Virus record (IMG/VR): IMGVR_UViG_3300045988_135886
Direction: 5' to 3' (one strand)
Source of the DNA: a virus
DNA length: 64,000 nucleotides
Part shown: piece by piece, positions 4,588 to 28,883 of the stretch
How the letters are laid out: each line of letters starts with the position of its first letter
Numbering within the stretch: the stretch's first letter is position 1
The notes under the pieces: generated by a model
Told to the model about the DNA's origin: nothing
Database searches by the model: none
Seen by the model: only the letters and a program-made list of their open reading frames with translations
Translations under genes and position numbers: made by a program

Positions 4588-4622
4588 GTTACTCAACAAG
4601 TTGTGCTCTTGTTGATGATTGT

Positions 4623-4651
4623 ACTTTACCACAACTGTTTGGTTGTGTCAA
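4623..4651 (-). promoter_or_regulatory. sigma-A-type promoter, leftward (TTGACA-17-TGgTAAAGT)
   Basis: The reverse complement gives ttgaca (4651-4646), a 17-nt spacer, then tggtaaagt. It faces the 4352 promoter. Confidence 0.5.
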
Positions 4652-4762
4652 GTACTTTTTAAAACTTTTTGAAAAAGTTTTATTTACTGTTTTAGGAATT
4701 TTTCTGTGGATTCCAGAACCATTGTTTGAACTTGTCGACCGCCTTTCCTTATCGACACGCTT

Positions 4763-4791
4763 ATCATACTACTGTTACAGTAGGTTGTCAA
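4763..4791 (-). promoter_or_regulatory. sigma-A-type promoter, leftward (TTGACA-17-TATGAT)
   Basis: The reverse complement gives ttgaca (4791-4786), a 17-nt spacer, then tatgat (4768-4763). Confidence 0.5.
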
Positions 4792-4968
4792 TACTTTTTT
4801 TGAAAATATTTTTATTTACACGTTTACGAAAGCCTGCAAACCCGCATAAATACAGGCTTTTTGGCATGAAAAAAAGTTTTTTCGTGAAAAATTACTTCCT
4901 ATTAAAGCGAAAAATAAAGGTCGTCAGGAGCAGGCAGATTGCATACATAGTGTAATACATAGTTGTTA

Positions 4969-5019
4969 GAATATTTAGAATAGATTAAATATTTAGAATA
5001 GTTTAAATATTCAGAATAG
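4969..5019. repeat. three tandem 18-bp direct repeats (core ATATTYAGAATAG)
   Basis: Cores at 4971-4983, 4989-5001 and 5007-5019 with an exact 18-bp period. They lie immediately 3' of the RHH gene and upstream of the leftward promoters. Confidence 0.7.
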
Positions 5020-5037
5020 AGTGTTAATTAGTAAAGT

Positions 5038-5214
5038 TTAATCAATTATATCTGCAATACGTGATTTAATGAAAGTTGCTACTGCAATATTGTTAGAATC
5101 GCAATATTGTTTGAGTTTTTCGTATTCGTCAATACGCAATGCGACACCTATACGTTTTAAGTTCTTTTTATCCCACTCTTTTACATATTTCTTGTTATAT
5201 TCATAATTTGACAT
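5038..5214 (-). CDS. ribbon-helix-helix (CopG/Arc-like) DNA-binding protein (58 aa)
   Basis: Hand-translated: MSNYEYNKKYVKEWDKKNLKRIGVALRIDEYEKLKQYCDSNNIAVATFIKSRIADIID. This fits a beta-strand (KRIGVALR) followed by two helices. RBS aagagg. Below the ORF-track cutoff. Confidence 0.6.
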   Translation of the reverse strand: MSNYEYNKKYVKEWDKKNLKRIGVALRIDEYEKLKQYCDSNNIAVATFIKSRIADIID

Positions 5215-5440
5215 AAATCATAGCCTCTTTTCTATTCAATTTGTTGAGTTGTATATACAATTAAACTTCTAGTAAAAATTATTAGATAATTCAGTGCATA
5301 AGAAAACAATTGTCTGAAACATTGAATTTTAAAGCAAAATTGTATTCACAATCTTAAAAACACTATGGCTCGAGCAGAGAAAACAGACACAATTCAATAC
5401 AATTCGTTATATTGACTGAATACTCTGATTACTTTAGTAC

Positions 5441-5505
5441 TGTAAAATTCTGTAGTGTTATCACTGTAAAATTTTTCAATTGTAAAATTTCAATACTATA
5501 AAATT
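5441..5505. repeat. cluster of four TGTAAAATT-type boxes
   Basis: tgtaaaatt at 5441, 5465 and 5481; tataaaatt at 5497. A fifth copy at 5934-5942 abuts the -35 of the consensus promoter. The 13-mer tgtaaaattctgt is identical at 5441 and 5934. Confidence 0.6.
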
Positions 5506-5945
5506 TTGCTACGGTACGAATGCTACACACTGATTTATTAAAGTATACTAGGGCTATCCACTTTTACACTGTGAAGCCTTGAAAACAGGGCATTTGTAAA
5601 ACGATACATCTTACCATTGCGTATTCCATAGCATTCCTACTACTTCAGTCAGAAACAGTCAAAATCAGCCCGAACTGTTCATATCTGCCCACTAAAGGTT
5701 TGAAAATAAGCATTTTCGCACGTTTTAGACCGGGGGTACTTATGCCCTGAAAGCCTTGAAAACGCAGTGTTTTCCGGGGATGCAGAGCTTTTTTGACACC
5801 AAGTTCAGATTTCGGATCCATGTTCCCAGATTCTCCGATCATCACATCTCTCTCACTCGATTTCCAGATCAGAGTTTCTTCCTTATTATATATGTTTTCC
5901 TGATTCACCTGTTTTTATTTTTCTAAACAAGTTTGTAAAATTCTG

Positions 5946-5974
5946 TTGACATTTTTCATGGTTAATGCTATAAT
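5946..5974 (+). promoter_or_regulatory. consensus sigma-A promoter for the rightward block (TTGACA-17-TGcTATAAT)
   Basis: ttgaca at 5946-5951, exact 17-nt spacer, tataat at 5969-5974 preceded by tgc. Followed by hairpin atccc-gaaa-gggat and RBS caggagg before ATG 6015. Confidence 0.8.
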
Positions 5975-6014
5975 ACACTTATCCCGAAAGGGATAGAAAT
6001 CACAGGAGGCACAT

Positions 6015-6284
6015 ATGAACGACATTACTTTTATTGGAGTCAATCTTACTCAAGAACTCCAGAAACAACTTGATTCTCACAAATCAGCCATTCTATCTAC
6101 TGCACCTCCAGATGCAGTAAAAGGCTACAATCTAGGTGTACAAAACACTCTTCTACTCTTAGACTCACTTCTCTCATCTTTCGAATCCAACGAATTCCTG
6201 ATCAATACTACAGATTCCCACTTAACTGAGTATGACTATGATGAGCTTGAAGCTTTAACCCGTAAACAAGTTTATAAATCATAA
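6015..6284 (+). CDS. hypothetical protein (89 aa)
   Basis: RBS aggagg. First gene after the consensus promoter. Confidence 0.7.
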   Translation: MNDITFIGVNLTQELQKQLDSHKSAILSTAPPDAVKGYNLGVQNTLLLLDSLLSSFESNEFLINTTDSHLTEYDYDELEALTRKQVYKS

Positions 6285-8466: not shown

Positions 8467-8628
8467 GTTGATTGTTTTTGTTGGTGAAAAGTTTTCCATC
8501 GAACATAATATAATTAATATGTTTTTATTTAATTACTATATCTCAAGTAGAAAAAATGGTTTTCTTGAAAAAGGACTGAGCGAAGCGAAGAACTTTTGAA
8601 ACCGTTATCTACGTTAAAAAAGAAAGGA

Positions 8629-10275
8629 ATGATTACAATAGCAAAGCAGAAAAAATGTAAAAGATACTTATTCAAGCTCCACAGTGAACGTCTTCGTAGA
8701 TCACGCTGGAAGCTAGAATATCCATTAGAGGAAGCTCTAAACACAGAAAACATTATTTCTCTGTCTGATAGCCAAATTCTCAGATTCATTGATGAACTCA
8801 ACGGAGACACCAGTGAAGCCAGAGAAGAAGAAGCTTCTTATATAAAGAAAGAAATCAAGCGTCTCAAAAAATCTGATTCTTCTAAGAAAGATACTCTCAT
8901 AGCAAATCTCTATAAAAGATTCTATAATCTTCAATTTGTTCCAGATTACATGTGTCTGATCATTGATAAAATGTCTGATTATAACAGAGCCAATAAAGGC
9001 TTTTCTATCAATGGAATTAAATATCACAGACTCCTAGGCACCAACGGGGGCATAAAGAATTCTACTATTGTTTATGTCTCTGAAAGGCTATATCCCCAGC
9101 TCTATGAGCGTCTCTGTTGCGGCAGGAACCTAGAACAAAAATTTGTGCCAGCTAAACTTGAAGCGTACCAGGCACTGATCTGTTCCGGTAGTATTCCAGT
9201 AAGTATGCCAAAAGGGATCATAGTCGTTCCTGACTGCATTACTCATTTCACAGAAGACATTATTCGTGTAGATGACTCTCAGTCTGATGAACCAATAGTA
9301 GAGTTCCTCAAGGATCAAGAAATAGAGCTTACGGAATCAGACGGTTACGGAATCATGCTTCCATCACTCTCTTACCGTTGGGCAAGAGAGCTTGACGAAG
9401 AAGAAGATTTTTTATCTGGCTGTAATCTCAGAGGACTTCCATGGACAAAGGGCATGGTTTTCACAATGGATTACTTAGCTTTTGGGGAATCTATAGCGAA
9501 AAACTTCTATATAAAAGATGCCTGGGGAGATATGAGAGATATCAGAGAGTCTGAACTGATTATTACTACTTCTATGCTTAAATTATGGGATTCCTACTCT
9601 TCTTTCGAAGATTACTGGTCCAATATAGAAAAATATCATTATCAAATATCTATAGCCAAGACTGCTCCTGCAAGACTTGATGAGTACAGAAGCACAAATT
9701 ACCAGTTCCTGCAGAATTACCACCTTACACCGGAAGAAGTAACTGAATTGGTCCGTCCTACAGTAGAAGAAATTCAAGAAATCCTTGGATTAGATTACAG
9801 GAAGTCACTCCTATTTCTGAGAGGAACAAATCTTACAGAAGATTCCTATATTGATGAAGAGCCATATATCAACGCTCTCATGATTGAGCCACAGATGATT
9901 CATGATCCTTACATCAGAGATAGAATCTACAATATGATAAAGAAAAAAATCAGACAGGCCAAGATTGGTGTACTCAAAGTGAGGGGTAACTTTGCCATCA
10001 TTGGAGGGGATCCGTATAGCTTGATGCAGAGTATCTTTGGTTTACCGGTCACAGGATTGCTCCACGCTGGGGAATGCTGGCATAAACATTGGCTTGATCG
10101 AGGAGTCAGCGAGGTCTGCTGCTTCAGAGCACCTATGACAAGCAAATACAATGTGCGTAAGCTTAAGATAGTAGGGACTCCTGATATGACTTATTGGTAT
10201 AGATATATAAACACATGCATGTTGTTAAACTCATGGGATAGTACTAAGGAAGCTCTTAATGGAGCTGATTGTGAT
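8629..10275 (+). CDS. YonO/RdRP-like two-barrel RNA polymerase, exon 1
   Basis: ATG 8629 has RBS aaaggaa (the ORF track starts at TTG 8596). The C-terminal part, VCCFRAPMTSKYNVRKLKIV...CMLLNSWDSTKEALNGADCD, resembles the RdRP/YonO catalytic barrel. It ends inside the DxDGD motif and runs on only 12 more codons before a stop. Confidence 0.7.
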
Positions 10276-11268
10276 AAAACTCTGTCACCTTATACAGCGA
10301 TGTATATGTAAAACTCGGTGAACTTACAAATGTAAGGTGTCCGGAAGTACCGGGCTAACAGTGGAACTCTTATTGGAAAAATAGATTATAAAAAAGAAGG
10401 TGAGAACAATAGAAGAAAGAATTTTAAATGTAAAAGGTATTGATTACATAGTTCGTGAAGATGGAAAAATATTTAGTACTCATAATCGTGGTAGAGCGAA
10501 ATATCATCAGGAAATAAAACAACGTATGAATTCAGATGGGTACATGTGTATTACTGTCGGTAAAACAGGAAACAGAACAGTTGCCAGTGTTCATAGATTA
10601 GTAGCAAAAGCATTTATCCCTAATCCTTTAAATTTACCGGAAGTAAATCATAAAGATTACAATCGCACAAACAACAGTGTAGATAACTTAGAATGGTGTT
10701 CACATAAAGAAAATATTGACTATACTCTCGCTGCTGGCAGACATGCTTCGCAGACGTTAGATTATAGTGGCAAGAAAAATCCCAACTACGGAAACACCAC
10801 ACTCAGTCAGAAGTACAAAGCTGATCCTGCATATTCAAAAGAAAAACAATCTCGTCCCGGAGGACAGAATGGAAGAGCTATTCCAGTATGTTTGTTAGAT
10901 AAAGACAAAAATGTAATAGCAACTTTTCCATACATGCAGTTATGCGCAGAATATGTGTTGAAACAACTGCACTCTTCTTCATCTCCGGCAGGTCTAGCAG
11001 GAAGAATCCCATATTATATAGAAACAGGTAACATATATAAACACACATACTATTTTTCCAAAGACAATACTGTGCTAAGTCTCAATAATGAGAAAAGTTC
11101 AACGACTATCGAAAGCATAGCTTAAGAGAAATACTTAAGTAAAGAAGCAAGTAGAGTACCTTGTGAGTGGAATCCTCGCAGGGGAAGTGCCGAGCATCTG
11201 TATCTTGGTGATAGAGCTACAGATGAAGATATAGTCTAGTCCTTATGGAAACATAAGGTGTTAAGTCG
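10276..11268 (+). mobile_element. group I intron (HNH-encoding) in the RNA polymerase gene
   Basis: U10275 precedes the 5' splice site and G11268 is the last intron nucleotide. Guide ctct-gtcac (10080-series 10280-10288): gtcac pairs with gtgat (10271-10275), and ctct pairs with exon 2 ggag (11269-11272). R box gttcaacgactat at 11097-11109. S box gaagatatagtct at 11225-11237. Confidence 0.8.
10400..11125 (+). CDS. HNH homing endonuclease (NUMOD4-like N-terminus)
   Basis: IDYIVREDGKIFS...VHRLVAKAFIPNP...VNHKDYNRTNNSVDNLEWCSHKENI is a classic HNH signature. GTG start. Confidence 0.85.
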   Translation: MRTIEERILNVKGIDYIVREDGKIFSTHNRGRAKYHQEIKQRMNSDGYMCITVGKTGNRTVASVHRLVAKAFIPNPLNLPEVNHKDYNRTNNSVDNLEWCSHKENIDYTLAAGRHASQTLDYSGKKNPNYGNTTLSQKYKADPAYSKEKQSRPGGQNGRAIPVCLLDKDKNVIATFPYMQLCAEYVLKQLHSSSSPAGLAGRIPYYIETGNIYKHTYYFSKDNTVLSLNNEKSSTTIESIA

Positions 11269-12354
11269 GGAGACTTAATGTTTACTACTAACAATACTAT
11301 CTTATTAAAACATACAGAAAACCTACCGCCAATCTATTGCATCCAACGTAAAGGAAACAAGGTAGTTCCGACTGAGACAGATATGATACAAGCTAATAAA
11401 GGTTCTTTCGGTGATGCGATTGGTCCTATTACTAATGTTATCACTTCACAGATATGCTTACAGGCAAGGTTCCCGAAAGACAGTGAGGAATATAAAGTCT
11501 TAGACTACAGGATATTGTGTGGGCAGCTGTTCCAACAGAACTCTATTGATAAAGCTAAAGGAATCATCGCTAAACCTATGCCAAAACATTGGTATGACAA
11601 TAGCTACAACCGTATAGAAGAAACAGATACACCAGAAGAAATATCTAAGAAGGAATTCAATCAGAGAATTTGTGCAGATAAGAAGCCGTACTTCTTCATC
11701 TACAACTACCCTACTCTTATGAAAGAATACAAAGACTACATCAAAACATCAGATGCCGTGAGCAGGTCCAGATTTAATATTCCGCTGGAAGAGCTGCTGT
11801 CATCACAAGAGTTGACTGAAGAACAGGCAGAGTTTCTTAAATTCTATAAAGAATTCTATCCAGTCAATGCAGAAACCTGTGTAGTCAATGAACTCTGTTG
11901 GGAAATTGAGAAAACACTGGCTGATGTAAAAGAAAGTAAGGTACCGTTTGACAGTTCTATTCTGAAGTCAGATGCCACCTACACAAATAAGGATAAGGCT
12001 TTTATAAAACGTATCTATGATAAATATAACAAAACTTATGCAAACAGAATGAGCCGCCATAGCTCTGTGTATGAAGATACTTCTTTAACTCCTATTGGAA
12101 TGACTTTTGAATCAGAGTGTGCAGAATATGTTCCAGACGCAGAAAAGCTTTGTAACATTCTGGTTGATTTGGGATATAACACAAAAAAGGGTAAAACTTT
12201 CGTCTGGGAGATGTCCGGAGATACTATTATTGATAACCTTCTTTCTCGAACAGATGGTTATGCGCAGTTTCCTGTAAAGGATCCAGACGGTGATATAGAG
12301 TTTTGCGGCGAACACTTCTCAATGAAAAAAGTAAAAATGAAAGGCGAAGAATAA
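11269..12354 (+). CDS. YonO/RdRP-like RNA polymerase, exon 2
   Basis: In-frame codons GGA GAC (G-D) at 11269-11274 complete GADCD|GD. The ORF continues for 362 codons. Confidence 0.7.
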   Translation, partial: GDLMFTTNNTILLKHTENLPPIYCIQRKGNKVVPTETDMIQANKGSFGDAIGPITNVITSQICLQARFPKDSEEYKVLDYRILCGQLFQQNSIDKAKGIIAKPMPKHWYDNSYNRIEETDTPEEISKKEFNQRICADKKPYFFIYNYPTLMKEYKDYIKTSDAVSRSRFNIPLEELLSSQELTEEQAEFLKFYKEFYPVNAETCVVNELCWEIEKTLADVKESKVPFDSSILKSDATYTNKDKAFIKRIYDKYNKTYANRMSRHSSVYEDTSLTPIGMTFESECAEYVPDAEKLCNILVDLGYNTKKGKTFVWEMSGDTIIDNLLSRTDGYAQFPVKDPDGDIEFCGEHFSMKKVKMKGEE

Positions 12355-17222: not shown

Positions 17223-17263
17223 ATATTAAATTGCTGACCTGGTGAATTCCAGGTTGGCGATTT

Positions 17264-17335
17264 GTCCGGTTAGTCTAGCGGTTAAGACACTGCGCTTTCA
17301 ATGCAGTAACATGGGTTCAATTCCCGTACCGGATG
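17264..17335 (+). tRNA. tRNA-Glu (anticodon UUC)
   Basis: Hand fold: 7-bp acceptor (G1:U72), 4-bp D stem gtct/agac, anticodon stem ctgcg/tgcag with loop cuUUCaa, 4-nt variable loop, T arm atggg-ttcaatt-cccgt. No encoded CCA. Confidence 0.8.
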
Positions 17336-17426
17336 TTTGTATATTTGAGAGTTGTGGGTAATCTCAAATGTCATTTTCCGTATAGTTGTTTCTTTGGGGA
17401 GAACTGGAACTCCCCCCTCCTATTCT

Positions 17427-17509
17427 GCAAAGTAAATTCACAAGGTGTGGAACCGACCTGCTAAGTCGTGTGATCCGACAGGATTGAGTTTCGATTACTC
17501 TGCTTTGCG
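17427..17509 (+). tRNA. type II tRNA-Ser (anticodon GCU), atypical
   Basis: Acceptor gcaaagt/gctttgc, loop cuGCUaa, variable-arm stem atcc/ggat, T loop ttcgatt. The D arm is non-standard, and the anticodon and T stems each have one mismatch. Confidence 0.5.
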
Positions 17510-17576
17510 TTACAAGATATGTAGATTACAGCCCACCTCCTGTGGGAATTCGTAGGTGAAAATCCTACCATGTAAC
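17510..17576 (+). pseudogene. tRNA-like cloverleaf with a 5-nt anticodon loop (degenerate tRNA?)
   Basis: Acceptor ttacaag/catgtaa (one A:A mismatch), D stem tgta/taca with a 3-nt loop, stem cccac/gtggg closing loop ctcct, T arm gtagg-tgaaaat-cctac. Confidence 0.3.
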
Positions 17577-17638
17577 TCTTGGTTATGTGATTGTAGCATA
17601 TCATGAATATAAAGATAACCGGATTGATTCCGGTTGAA

Positions 17639-17663
17639 AGGCAGGACTACTCTCCTGCCTTTT
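17639..17663 (+). terminator. hairpin with a short U-tract inside the tRNA cluster
   Basis: 8-bp stem aggcagga/tcctgcct, 6-nt loop, then ttt. Confidence 0.45.
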
Positions 17664-17720
17664 ACTTATAATTAGGAAATGGCTGCGGAGCGGCCTAACA
17701 ATCTGGAAAGACAGATTAAT

Positions 17721-17804
17721 GTTGCGTGTCCGGTAGGTCGAGGGTGCAGTCTTGAAAACTGTCTGGGTGTAAAAGCCTCTGGGGTTCGAATCCCTAACGC
17801 AACG
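17721..17804 (+). tRNA. type II tRNA-Ser (anticodon UGA)
   Basis: Perfect 7-bp acceptor gttgcgt/acgcaac, anticodon stem gcagt/actgt with loop cuUGAaa, long variable arm, T arm tgggg-ttcgaat-cccta. Confidence 0.7.
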
Positions 17805-17807
17805 TCC

Positions 17808-17889
17808 GGGAGAACGGTAGAGATGGAGATCTACGGCGGTCTGTAAAACCGTTGCAATTGCTTTGAGTGTTCGAATCACTCTTCTCCCA
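17808..17889 (+). tRNA. type II tRNA-Tyr (anticodon GUA)
   Basis: Acceptor gggagaa/ttctccc, D stem gtag/ctac, anticodon stem gcggt/accgt with loop cuGUAaa, long variable arm, T arm gagtg-ttcgaat-cactc. Lies 3 nt after tRNA-Ser. Confidence 0.8.
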
Positions 17890-26563: not shown

Positions 26564-27024
26564 ATGAAACTTAATTTTTCAAGTAATGAAGTAAGAAATA
26601 TTTTTGCTGAAAATGATTATGCAGAGTACTCCCAGCTTATGTTTGACACAGCTAAGGGAGAAGAAAAAGTATCTACAAAAGATGCTAATAATAAAATCAG
26701 AGAGATTATGTTCTCTGTACTTGGAGTAGATGAAAACTGCTCAAGAAAAGAACTTAGAAAAGCTATTCGTAGACATAAAATTGATGTATTTGAAATTATC
26801 GAAGAGACAGTAGAGAATCTGCTTGTTTCTGGTTGGGGAGAAAACCCATTCTTCAATGAATTTGTAGAAATCAAATCTATGGCTGACGGTGATACTAATG
26901 AGTTCTATGTACCGGATGAAGTTATTCTGACAGTGTCTGAACTTGCAGGCAATCATCATGACCTGATCAGACAGCGTCTGGCAGAAGGACAGACATTCTC
27001 TGTTAGAACTTCATGGTATGGGAT
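26564..27024 (+). CDS. major capsid protein, exon 1
   Basis: RBS aaaggagg. Ends ...FSVRTSWYG, then 3 codons and a stop. Together with 28265-28883 it makes a 359-aa protein in the capsid position. Confidence 0.65.
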
Positions 27025-28264
27025 TAACTTTTAGTCCCCAAGTACTGTAAAGTGCTTTGTACAAACTAACGCATTGAATTGCTGGAATTTCTTAAAGCTA
27101 ATTACACTACAACGTAAGTATGAAATAAAACTAAGCGTGAATGTTATGAAAATAGAAAGAAGTAATTAGATGATACAAGGTTAAATCCTAAATATCGAGA
27201 GCACTCAACACCTATAACAGGTGTTTTTATTATGCTTAAAATAGAGAATCAGCAGCCAAGATCCGAACAGGATAAGGTTCAACGACTATCTGGAAACAGA
27301 GTAGAACTACAAGCGATTGGTAGTTCGAAGTGGTGCGCACCCTCAATTAGGGTGAAGATATAGTCTAATCTTTAGTGAAAGCTAAAGGGCTTTTAGCCAA
27401 CACAGAGTAGCGTCTGAATTAATATCATTTTTCAAAATAATTATATAAGGAAGTATACATGAAAGAAAAACTATGTGGCATTTATTGCATAGAGAATATA
27501 CTCAACAATAAAAAATATATTGGTATGTCAAGAGATATAAAACGGAGATGGTCTGAACATAAAACAGAATTAAACTCTCATACTCATGTCAATCAGTATT
27601 TACAAGCTGCCTGGGATAAGTACGGCAAAGAAAATTTTAAGTTTTATATTATTGAGTTATGTGATGAAGAGAATCTCAGTGAACAAGAATGTCATTATAT
27701 ACGTTTTTATAAATCATTATCACATGAAAATGGATACAATCTGACTACTGGTGGAGAAAATACTTCTATCGGCAAATCAGTAATATCATTAAAAGATGGG
27801 GCTATCTACAATTATGTAAATGATGCAGCTCAAAATGCCAACGTTCAGTCAGCAACTATGATTTCATGGTGTCGTCAAAAACATAACTATATGTATTTAG
27901 ATGAGTATAACGCTCTTTCTCAAGATGAGAAAGAATATTGGAAAAATTTTGATTGGAAAAACTTTGATCATAAAAAATTAAGTCAAGTACATTCTCGAGA
28001 AAATCTCTCAACAACTACCCTGAAAAAACTAAGTCAAGCGACATCTGGAGATAAAAATCCAAGAGCGCTAAAAGTGTATTGCCCACAATTAAATGAAACA
28101 TTTGATTGTATAAAATATGCATCAGATAAGTATGGCGTTAATAGAGGAAGTATAACTTCTTGTATTAAAGGTAGACTTAAAAGTGCCGGTAAACATCCCG
28201 CTACCGGAGAAAAATTAACATGGGAACTAATTGAAAAATGATATTAAAGTGTTAAATATAAATG
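27025..28264 (+). mobile_element. group I intron (GIY-YIG-encoding) in the major capsid gene
   Basis: P box gaattgctggaa (27076-27087), Q box aatcagcagcc (27247-27257), R box gttcaacgactat (27277-27289), S box gaagatatagtct (27354-27366). Guide tttta-gtccc (27029-27038): gtccc pairs with gggat (27020-27024, U27024:G27034), and tttta pairs with exon 2 taaaa (28265-28269) after G28264. The join is in frame. Confidence 0.8.
27459..28241 (+). CDS. GIY-YIG homing endonuclease (intron-encoded)
   Basis: CGIYCIENILNNKKYIGMSRDIKRRWSEHKT...NGYNLTTGG. RBS aaggaag. Confidence 0.85.
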   Translation: MKEKLCGIYCIENILNNKKYIGMSRDIKRRWSEHKTELNSHTHVNQYLQAAWDKYGKENFKFYIIELCDEENLSEQECHYIRFYKSLSHENGYNLTTGGENTSIGKSVISLKDGAIYNYVNDAAQNANVQSATMISWCRQKHNYMYLDEYNALSQDEKEYWKNFDWKNFDHKKLSQVHSRENLSTTTLKKLSQATSGDKNPRALKVYCPQLNETFDCIKYASDKYGVNRGSITSCIKGRLKSAGKHPATGEKLTWELIEK

Positions 28265-28883
28265 TAAAATTTACGCAGAATATGAGCTGTTTATGGCAGG
28301 TCGTATTGACTGGGCTGGATTCGTACAGAAAATCTATGAAGCTTTTGACAAGAAAATTAATGATATGGTATATGCGGCTGTAATGGCAGCAGGTGAGAAG
28401 GTTCTCCCGTCTACACAGTTTAATAAGACAGGTACACTTTCAGCAGCTACAAAAGATGAGTTTATGACTCTAATCGAAGATGTACAGATGGCTACAGGTG
28501 ATGAAGTAGTTGTTATGGGTACCAAATCTGCTCTTGCAAAACTTTCTGCTATGGAAGATATTACTTGGGTATCTAATGCAATGAAAGATGAAAGACACAC
28601 TACAGGCCGTTTAGGTATGTTTGAAGGTATTCGTCTTGTTGAAATTCCACAGAGATTTGCTAATAATGACACAAGTAAAAAGTTAGTAGATAATACTAAA
28701 CTTCTGATTATGCCAGTAGCTGATAACAAATTTATCAAAATCTACAATGAAGGCGACGCTCAGATTAAAGAAGTATCTGATGGAAATACAAATATGGATA
28801 AAACTATTGAGTATGAATATCAGATTAAAATGGGTGTGGCCACAATTATTGGAAAGCGTTTCGGAGTTTGGACACTTAAATAA
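28265..28883 (+). CDS. major capsid protein, exon 2
   Basis: The frame is open from 28248. The junction reads SWYG-I-KIYAEYELFMAGRIDW. No SD before the listed ATG 28293. A strong hairpin follows. Confidence 0.65.

Follow-up and report, generated by a model that had tools for sequence, protein, structure and literature searches.

Group I introns that encode HNH or GIY-YIG endonucleases and lie in the most conserved motifs of phage genes are a classic arrangement, and their classic hosts are the genes for phage DNA polymerase, ribonucleotide reductase, thymidylate synthase and terminase (PMC11878797, PMC2814812). The beta-like RNA polymerase subunit genes of jumbo phages also hold introns, for example 201phi2-1 gp273/274 (PMC2919709). 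Here we describe a further element of this kind in a 64,000-nucleotide stretch of viral DNA, IMG/VR record IMGVR_UViG_3300045988_135886, which we call the window. Its positions 10276-11268 very probably form a mobile group I intron of the IA subgroup type, which interrupts a phage YonO-like RNA polymerase gene in phase 0, after codon D549 and before codon G550.

The locus resembles PhiPA3 gp210 (Birkholz et al. 2024, PMC11620839), in which a putative group I intron with an I-HmuI-like HNH (nicking) endonuclease likewise interrupts a phage two-barrel RNA polymerase gene. The PhiPA3 intron is positioned directly after two conserved aspartates, and its HNH protein nicks a competitor's gene (PMC11620839). 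The PhiPA3 host gene encodes the beta-like subunit of a multisubunit enzyme, whereas here the enzyme is single-chain and YonO-like, and the intron falls in its beta'-type DxDGD triad. For PhiPA3, experiments have demonstrated nicking and inter-phage interference, whereas the nuclease in the window is a putative one, and the two intron sequences are not demonstrably related.

The phages SPO1 and SP82 carry subgroup IA introns in a Firmicute-phage DNA polymerase gene, and homing of these introns co-converts the flanking exon. Their endonucleases, I-HmuI and I-HmuII, are of the same HNH family as the one in the window (E 2e-7 to structure 1U3E), but the window intron differs in its host gene, in the position of its open reading frame (ORF), which lies in the P5 loop, and in extra P3.1-like hairpins. 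It is also similar to the T4 td intron, of subgroup IA2, in the sequences of P4-P6 (CUAAC-P4 ... CAAU-P4'-GCUAAG), in P7.1 and P7.2, in an in-frame stop shortly past the 5' splice site, and in the choice of a conserved enzyme gene as host. The td intron differs in being without hairpins between P3 and J3/4 and in encoding a GIY-YIG endonuclease (I-TevI) in P6. The introns of the Bastillevirinae are, like this one, IA-type phage introns with HNH ORFs and a poor fit to the Rfam model RF00028, although the phiAGATE host gene and insertion site differ.

A literature search for introns in YonO-type polymerase genes found nothing specific, which is no proof of absence. Phage polymerase genes are well known to carry introns in their conserved motifs, and another one is not a surprise to specialists. 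An earlier sequence-only reading of this DNA had called the insertion textbook-extreme, which overstates its novelty, because insertion beside catalytic residues is the norm for such elements.

The polymerase gene and its interrupted triad

The YonO protein is an RNA polymerase, DNA-dependent and distantly related to the multisubunit polymerases, and catalysis requires its aspartate triad (PMC5467207); within the YonO-like group, DNA-dependent RNA synthesis is demonstrated for SPbeta YonO alone. Among the eight residues common to all two-barrel polymerases are those at the DxDGD, R and P positions (PMC2919709). In the window, the gene is laid out as follows.

8629-10275, + strand: first exon (549 codons) of the YonO-like RNA polymerase gene, ending ...NGADCD with D547 and D549
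10309-10311, + strand: in-frame TAA, the end of ORF 8596-10311
11268, + strand: terminal (omega) G, with the 3' splice site between 11268 and 11269, fixed by intron-less alleles
11269-12354, + strand: exon 2, GDLMFTTNN..., with G550 and D551; begun at ATG 11278 by gene callers; matches phrog_35857

The ORF that contains exon 1 runs from 8596 to 10311, and its probable start, ATG 8629, agrees with the intron-less protein P0001. A PDB sequence search with the spliced polymerase gave no hit. Because Pfam returned no polymerase hit for the separate exons or for the spliced window protein, we had to identify the gene through tblastn, through PHROG matches and through homologues. Exon 1 matches phrog_25339 and phrog_8308. 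Against phage genomes, tblastn with the spliced protein finds Clostridium phage c-st (38%), Enterocloster phages (37%) and Bacillus phage BUCT082 (31%), and the SPbeta-group yonO is 25% identical over residues 122-608 (E about 1e-17 to 6e-17). A 56%-identical homologue, P0023, does match the Pfam RdRP family PF05183, at 29 bits (cut-off 23.8) over residues 420-590, which span the motif, and the same assignment is precomputed for many homologues. In all, more than 4,000 homologues are found at E <= 1e-10.

Aligning the spliced protein with SPbeta YonO, PMBT24, BUCT082 and metagenomic homologues shows D547, D549, D551, R500 and P502 to be invariant in all eight sequences. The triad reads DNDGD in YonO, DFDGD in PMBT24 and DCDGD in this phage, and the motif NGxDxD(G/S)D is found throughout the best 80 IMG/VR relatives (76 tallied matches). 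On this comparison we identify the host gene as a YonO-like single-subunit two-barrel RNA polymerase rather than a DNA polymerase, which gives a name to what the sequence-only reading had called simply the polymerase. By the same alignment, the triad that the intron splits is the DxDGD of the beta'-type barrel, exon 1 encoding D547 and D549 and exon 2 encoding D551.

The last approximately 100 codons of exon 2 (window 12000-12354) are sharply diverged from the alleles L005, L099 and L176, which are otherwise near-identical to the window; about 25% of the compared exon-2 bases differ, mostly past about +700. This C-terminal divergence suggests mosaic recombination unrelated to the intron.

The boundaries of the insertion can be given to the nucleotide. 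Exon 1 ends GGA GCT GAT TGT GAT at 10261-10275 (G-A-D-C-D, in the context ...E-A-L-N-G-A-D-C-D, the last GAT being 10273-10275), and GGA GAC (G-D) stands at 11269-11274, in the frame of the ORF called from ATG 11278 to 12354. U10275 is the last base 5' of the insertion and G11268 its final base, as expected of an omega G. The segment between them is 993 nt long and falls in phase 0 between codons D549 and G550. Six intron-less alleles (P0001/L005, L097-L100 and L176) read GA(C/T)TG(C/T)GAT-GGAGA(T/C) without interruption, giving NGADCDGDLMFTTNN (here and below a hyphen within a motif marks the insertion point). Since A follows 10275, G precedes 11269 and the intron-less allele reads ...GAT GGA..., the insertion can only be 10276-11268.

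At the protein level, the intron-less alleles are approximately 93-99% identical to the spliced product (tblastn best segment) and read ...NGADCD-GDLMFTTNN...; one of them, L100, shows strong divergence upstream at the DNA level despite its protein likeness. Searching with the conceptually spliced product retrieves the 900-aa protein P0001, 95% identical and reading ...LNGADCDGDLMFTTNN..., and the intron-less junction of L097 is ...GGAGCCGACTGCGATGGAGATTTAATGTTC.... For the window allele, the predicted ligated junction is GCTGATTGTGAT joined to GGAGACTTAATG, in a molecule 993 nt shorter than the genomic sequence.

Read without splicing, the exon-1 frame continues for 11 sense codons into the intron and stops at TAA 10309-10311, upstream of P3. 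In the frame of D551 there is a stop at 11254-11256, and the first start codon is ATG 11278. Because the exon-1 frame ends at 10309-10311 and the exon-2 frame is without a start before 11278, D551 cannot be translated unless the RNA is spliced. All statements of the sequence-only reading about the letters at this junction check out, as does its claim that the aspartate triad is encoded across the junction and that unspliced message lacks the last aspartate; its suggestion of an alignment with intron-less homologues gave the uninterrupted motif as predicted, in six alleles. We also considered an intein, which was rejected for want of a continuous reading frame (the stop at 10309), and a group II intron, which was rejected for want of group II features or Rfam hits.

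Ribozyme fold, covariation and the internal endonuclease gene

The model RF00028 (Intron_gpI) scores 49.7 bits (E 2.4e-11) when region 10150-11400 is searched alone. In a whole-window Rfam scan at curated thresholds, another group I intron (27015-27387) and a tRNA are listed and 10276-11268 is not, because its score is 0.3 bit below the gathering cut-off of 50. In the Rfam alignment, J6/7-P7, P3', P8, J8/7-P7' and P9 fit well, and the 5' half is misplaced into the ORF. The core consensus strings are present, J6/7-P7 as UCAACGACUA and J8/7-P7' as GAAGAUAUAGUC.

We list the elements as placed by the unconstrained minimum free energy (MFE) fold, computed with the ORF-containing loop replaced by GAAA, by the Rfam alignment, or by complementarity.

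10271-10275 / 10284-10288, + strand: P1, GUGAU / GUCAC, with the wobble U10275-G10284; 5' splice site 10275/10276; in the MFE fold
10280-10283, + strand: possible P10 guide CUCU, pairing with exon-2 GGAG 11269-11272; sequence complementarity
10291-10306, + strand: P2 hairpin UAUACA GCGA UGUAUA (stem 10291-96/10301-06); in the MFE fold
10314-10320, + strand: P3 5' strand CUCGGUG, pairing with 11188-11194; MFE helix 10314-19/11189-94
10323-10336, + strand: hairpin hpA, P3.1-like, inside the invariant GGUGAACYUACAAAUGUARGGUG; in the MFE fold
10340-10354, + strand: hairpin hpB, P3.1-like, variable; in the MFE fold
10358-10363 / 11068-11073, + strand: P4, its 5' strand followed by J4/5; in the MFE fold
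10368-10384 / 11050-11064, + strand: P5 (long), with J5/4 between P5' and P4'; in the MFE fold
10400-11125, + strand: I-HmuI-like HNH ORF, 241 aa, GTG start, in the P5 loop
within 11074-11098, + strand: P6; in the MFE fold
11099-11108, + strand: J6/7 and P7 5' strand (GACUA 11104-11108), pairing with UAGUC 11232-11236; Rfam alignment
11120-11140, + strand: P7.1, a peripheral hairpin typical of subgroup IA; in the MFE fold
11159-11183, + strand: P7.2, a peripheral hairpin typical of subgroup IA; in the MFE fold
11188-11194, + strand: P3 3' strand UGCCGAG; Rfam alignment, MFE fold and family covariation
11195-11225, + strand: P8; in the MFE fold
11225-11236, + strand: J8/7 and P7 3' strand (UAGUC 11232-11236); Rfam alignment
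11241-11258, + strand: P9; in the MFE fold

The ORF-deleted intron folds at -106.9 kcal/mol, compared to -77.1 +/- 4.7 for 100 shuffles (z = -6.3), and the fold recovers P1, P2, P3, P4, P5, P6, P7.1, P7.2, P8 and P9, together with hpA and hpB. P7 (GACUA/UAGUC) makes the usual pseudoknot with P3. Judged by P7.1/P7.2 and the td-like P4-P6 sequences, the intron is placed in subgroup IA. Our first placement of the ORF, in the P6 loop as in td, was rejected; 10374-10384 makes a long pairing with 11050-11060 and P4' lies at 11068-11073, which puts the ORF in the P5 loop. The 3' splice site is spanned by a 7-bp hairpin (UUAAGUC/GACUUAA, 11261-11278) whose loop contains the terminal G. This hairpin would be in competition with P10 and might affect use of the 3' splice site; a weaker form is found in the diverged intron L009.

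Several of the pairings are maintained across a family of related introns. The 23-nt motif GGUGAACYUACAAAUGUARGGUG, which comprises the end of P3, hpA and the following GGUG, occurs at 84 IMG/VR loci in several different host genes, and a copy is present in phiAGATE (Bastillevirinae), within its DNA polymerase gene. Sequence anchors recovered both halves of P3 from 29 distinct copies. The three variable positions are complementary in every one of the 29, in 14 Watson-Crick combinations, whereas shuffling the pairings yields 5.2 on average and 12 at most. The variable Y-R pair of hpA is U-A in 58 cases, C-G in 35, U-G in one and C-A in none. All six positions of P4 pair in many sequence-distinct members (for example ACAGUG/UACUGU and ACGGGG/UCCCGU). 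Compensated changes are also seen in P2 of L009 (UCAUAUG GCGA CAUAUGA), in hpB of L009 and L010, and in P7.2 of L007, L009 and L010; the P2 hairpin is absent from L010 and L017.

The P1 guide tracks the middle codon of the DxD motif in three polymerase lineages, as UGUGAU/GUCAC, AAGGAU/GUCCUU and UUCGAU/GUCGAA. The sequence-only reading had proposed a group I intron with U10275, G11268 and this P1 guide, and that proposal holds: the P3-P9 core is present with its J6/7-P7 and J8/7-P7' strings and with compensatory changes in relatives, and GUGAU/GUCAC, with its U-G wobble, appears in the MFE fold and covaries in the three lineages.

A natural ORF-less member of the family, L017 (6818-7143), scores only 21.7 bits with RF00028 when searched alone, with P3 mis-paired, and Rfam run on four related loci together found nothing at E <= 0.01. 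We attribute the low score of L017 to the model, which expects the P3 5' strand directly before J3/4-P4, where two hairpins intervene. The family is probably under-detected in phage annotation. Group I nomenclature already includes an optional pairing, 'P3.1' (PMC3873408), and for this reason we do not claim the two P3-P4 hairpins as a new structural class; the hairpins between P3 and J3/4 look like a variant architecture.

For the P5-loop ORF, the match to Pfam HNH_3 scores 32.4 bits (7e-8; cut-off 24.8) and that to phrog_59 has E 1.7e-35; over residues 18-114 the ORF also matches 1U3E, the structure of the SPO1 nicking enzyme I-HmuI, at the E value given above. By these matches its product is a homologue of HNH homing endonucleases of the I-HmuI type, in line with the HNH protein of the sequence-only reading. 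The last approximately 75 nt of the ORF double as P5', P4', P6, J6/7, P7 and the start of P7.1. Its protein is 66% identical to that of the diverged L009 intron, and the tail that overlaps the ribozyme is identical in protein, consistent with double duty as coding sequence and ribozyme. Every copy examined keeps the ORF intact, as does the diverged L009 lineage.

From these features we infer splicing at 10275/11269, possibly without protein help, and the activity and target of the nuclease. In the pre-mRNA, the internal guide GUCAC would pair with GUGAU, the final five bases of exon 1, so that cleavage would occur at the U10275-G10284 wobble. The attack after U10275 would come from an exogenous guanosine bound at P7, and the freed 3' OH of exon 1 would then attack after the terminal G11268. 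The joined exons would read ...NGADCD-GDLMF..., restoring the magnesium-binding DxDGD triad. Because exon joining restores the triad, only spliced mRNA could yield active polymerase.

Probable mobility and the same site in other phages

Exon polymorphisms linked to the intron occupy the following stretch.

10218-11425, + strand: intron-linked exon polymorphisms (-58 to -4 = 10218-10272; +6 to +157 = 11274-11425), a co-conversion-type tract

The window differs from intron-less exons at 21 positions between -28 and +81 (5 in -28 to -4, 16 in +6 to +81), and at none between +82 and +641 in the comparison with L005. All of these differences are synonymous except in one codon (+28 to +30), and the block separates the window from all six intron-less alleles. 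At sites -10, -7, -4 and +6 to +42, the intron-type state is found in more than 20 intron-carrying contigs, with one exception (+24 in L081), and never in the six intron-less alleles; position -4 (10272) is also required for P1 pairing. The distal sites (-58, -19 and +55 to +157) switch states among the same contigs, giving at least eight tract patterns. The intron itself is sporadic, with 76 of the best 80 IMG/VR relatives uninterrupted at NGxDxDGD.

Linked tracts with variable ends are the footprint expected of homing with co-conversion. During mixed infection, the HNH protein would presumably nick or cut intron-less alleles near the insertion site, and repair templated by the intron-carrying copy would then give them the intron plus flanking exon of variable length.

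Other phage lineages carry introns at the same codon boundary. In a GADCD lineage whose exon 1 is 80% identical, L009 has an intron with a 237-aa HNH ORF. In the GSDKD lineage, L010 has a related intron at the DxD-GD site (4620-5581), without P2 and with a 217-aa AntA-domain ORF in P6 (Pfam PF08346 and anti-repressor PHROGs) in place of the HNH gene; an AntA-type protein is unusual intron cargo. In the GCDFD lineage, ORF-less relatives of approximately 330 nt occupy the boundary (L017 and about ten others).

Clostridium phage c-st (L003, AP008983.1, 165503-167548) has, in the same gene family and at the same codon boundary (NGMDMD-GDAVISTNN), an ORF-less group I-like element of approximately 335 nt that scores 25.4 bits in Rfam when searched alone. 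It differs from the window intron in its conventional P3-J3/4-P4 arrangement and in being without the GGUGAAC... motif and without an endonuclease gene. CST179 and CST178 are the two exons of one YonO-like gene in c-st, where public annotation shows no intron; since publication they have been annotated as 'YonO-homolog N-ter only' and 'hypothetical protein'. The DxD-GD boundary is used by at least two structurally different group I lineages, whose cargo is an HNH gene in P5, an AntA-domain ORF in P6, or none.

A second, downstream site, after ...QQNxID, holds introns in L010 and in Enterocloster phage CB457P2. The L010 intron at this site (about 5860-6190, after ...QQNAID, in the same gene) is ORF-less. 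In CB457P2 (L002, 2076-3230), an insertion of approximately 1.15 kb after ...LFQQNELD encodes a 250-aa HNH/AP2-domain protein, and the combined Rfam scan gave no group I signal for it at E <= 0.01.

Alternative readings and significance

Our reading of 10276-11268 as a mobile intron draws on its exact boundaries, a conserved fold with compensatory changes, its location in the catalytic motif, the HNH homology and the co-conversion footprint. The Rfam E value, the fold energy and the uninterrupted intron-less alleles go well beyond chance expectation. Several observations count on the other side. The Rfam score is marginally under the curated cut-off, and the ORF and additional hairpins led to misalignment of the 5' half. 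The HNH ORF opens with GTG, behind a poor ribosome-binding site. P10 would consist of 4 bp only, one of them G-U, and is not conserved in the NGCDFD-lineage (L017-type) introns at the same site; the CUCU/GGAG pairing of the sequence-only reading is possible, but the evidence for it is weak and we regard P10 as optional. An exact-match search of IMG/VR and JGI metagenome contigs for the ligated junction with intron-type flanks, which could mark a spliced cDNA or a precise loss of the intron, found none, although absence from these two contig collections speaks neither for nor against splicing. Finally, the intervening sequence or sequences of the phiAGATE polymerase gene were spliced in infected cells and not in vitro (PMC11878797), with the caveat that the motif-bearing copy could not be confirmed as the assayed intron. 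Splicing in infected cells speaks for function in this intron family, but because the phiAGATE polymerase intron or introns spliced only in vivo, protein-independent splicing cannot be assumed.

The alternative that survives best is an intron that splices but is no longer mobile, its HNH protein inactive or repurposed (as a maturase-like factor or in phage competition) and the linked polymorphisms a product of old history or of selection on P1. We consider this unlikely. A splicing constraint does explain part of the linkage, since position -4 (10272) must be U for P1, and the weak translation start of the HNH ORF, the in vivo conditions needed for splicing in phiAGATE and the role of the PhiPA3 intron HNH in inter-phage competition (PMC11620839) would all fit. 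However, P1 and P10 contain only a minority of the linked sites, intron-carrying genomes that are almost identical differ in where their tracts end, a sign of repeated recent recombination, and a diverged lineage keeps the ORF intact, with 66% conservation.

It is far less probable that the segment is a decayed remnant that does not splice, leaving the polymerase as a pseudogene or as two separate non-catalytic fragments. The sub-threshold Rfam score and the missing spliced junction in the contig collections searched are compatible with decay, and databases do annotate the halves as separate proteins (CST179/CST178 in c-st; gene calls of 560 and 358 aa). Against this, both exons are intact, with a protein 93-99% identical to uninterrupted alleles, all core helices are present and diverged copies show compensatory changes that uphold them, more than 20 independent contigs share the arrangement, and D551 could be carried by neither fragment.

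We give almost no weight to a naturally split polymerase, comparable to the split beta' subunits of certain phages and cyanobacteria, with a free-standing HNH gene between its subunit genes and no RNA splicing: jumbo phages do have split two-barrel polymerases (PMC2919709) and free-standing HNH genes are common in phages, but the break here falls inside DxD-GD, the GD codons lie outside any translatable ORF (stop 11254-11256, start 11278), the intervening DNA contains a full group I core, other lineages have ORF-less versions of approximately 330 nt at this very point, and intron-less alleles are continuous.

Elsewhere in the window there is a second group I intron, 27015-28290, whose ribozyme core (27015-27387) scores 72.3 bits with RF00028 and is followed downstream by a GIY-YIG homing-endonuclease ORF at 27459-28241. 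It splits a phrog_4088 gene (flanking ORFs 26564-27034 and 28293-28883), with exon 1 covering profile positions 14-133 and exon 2 positions 144-331. A tRNA cluster lies at 17263-17889 on the + strand (Glu-UUC, Ser-UGA and Tyr-GUA).

Recognizing 10276-11268 as an intron changes how the gene is read. Public records split it into two or three unrelated 'hypothetical proteins' (CST179/CST178, and many calls of approximately 555-561 aa plus 358 aa), and recognition of the intron restores a complete YonO-type RNA polymerase in widespread gut and Clostridia-type phages. The general Rfam model under-scores this family, and similar phage introns have likely been missed in annotation. The near-identical alleles with and without the intron, with mappable ends of the co-conversion tracts, make an unusually clean natural data set for intron mobility. 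The intron guide co-evolves with the single variable codon of an otherwise invariant catalytic motif, and the pattern seen in multisubunit enzymes of jumbo phages, with HNH introns beside catalytic aspartates, extends to single-chain two-barrel polymerases.

More tentatively, we propose a joint model in which the DxD-GD boundary of YonO-like genes is a long-lived, repeatedly invaded homing hot spot, the HNH protein also serves as a weapon, and splicing times a switch; as a whole we hold this to be possible rather than likely. If it is true, the HNH protein may also act against intron-less competitors in a co-infection by disabling their late-transcription polymerase gene, in the manner of PhiPA3 gp210, and the intron could time a transcriptional switch, since the enzyme for later transcription would exist only after splicing.

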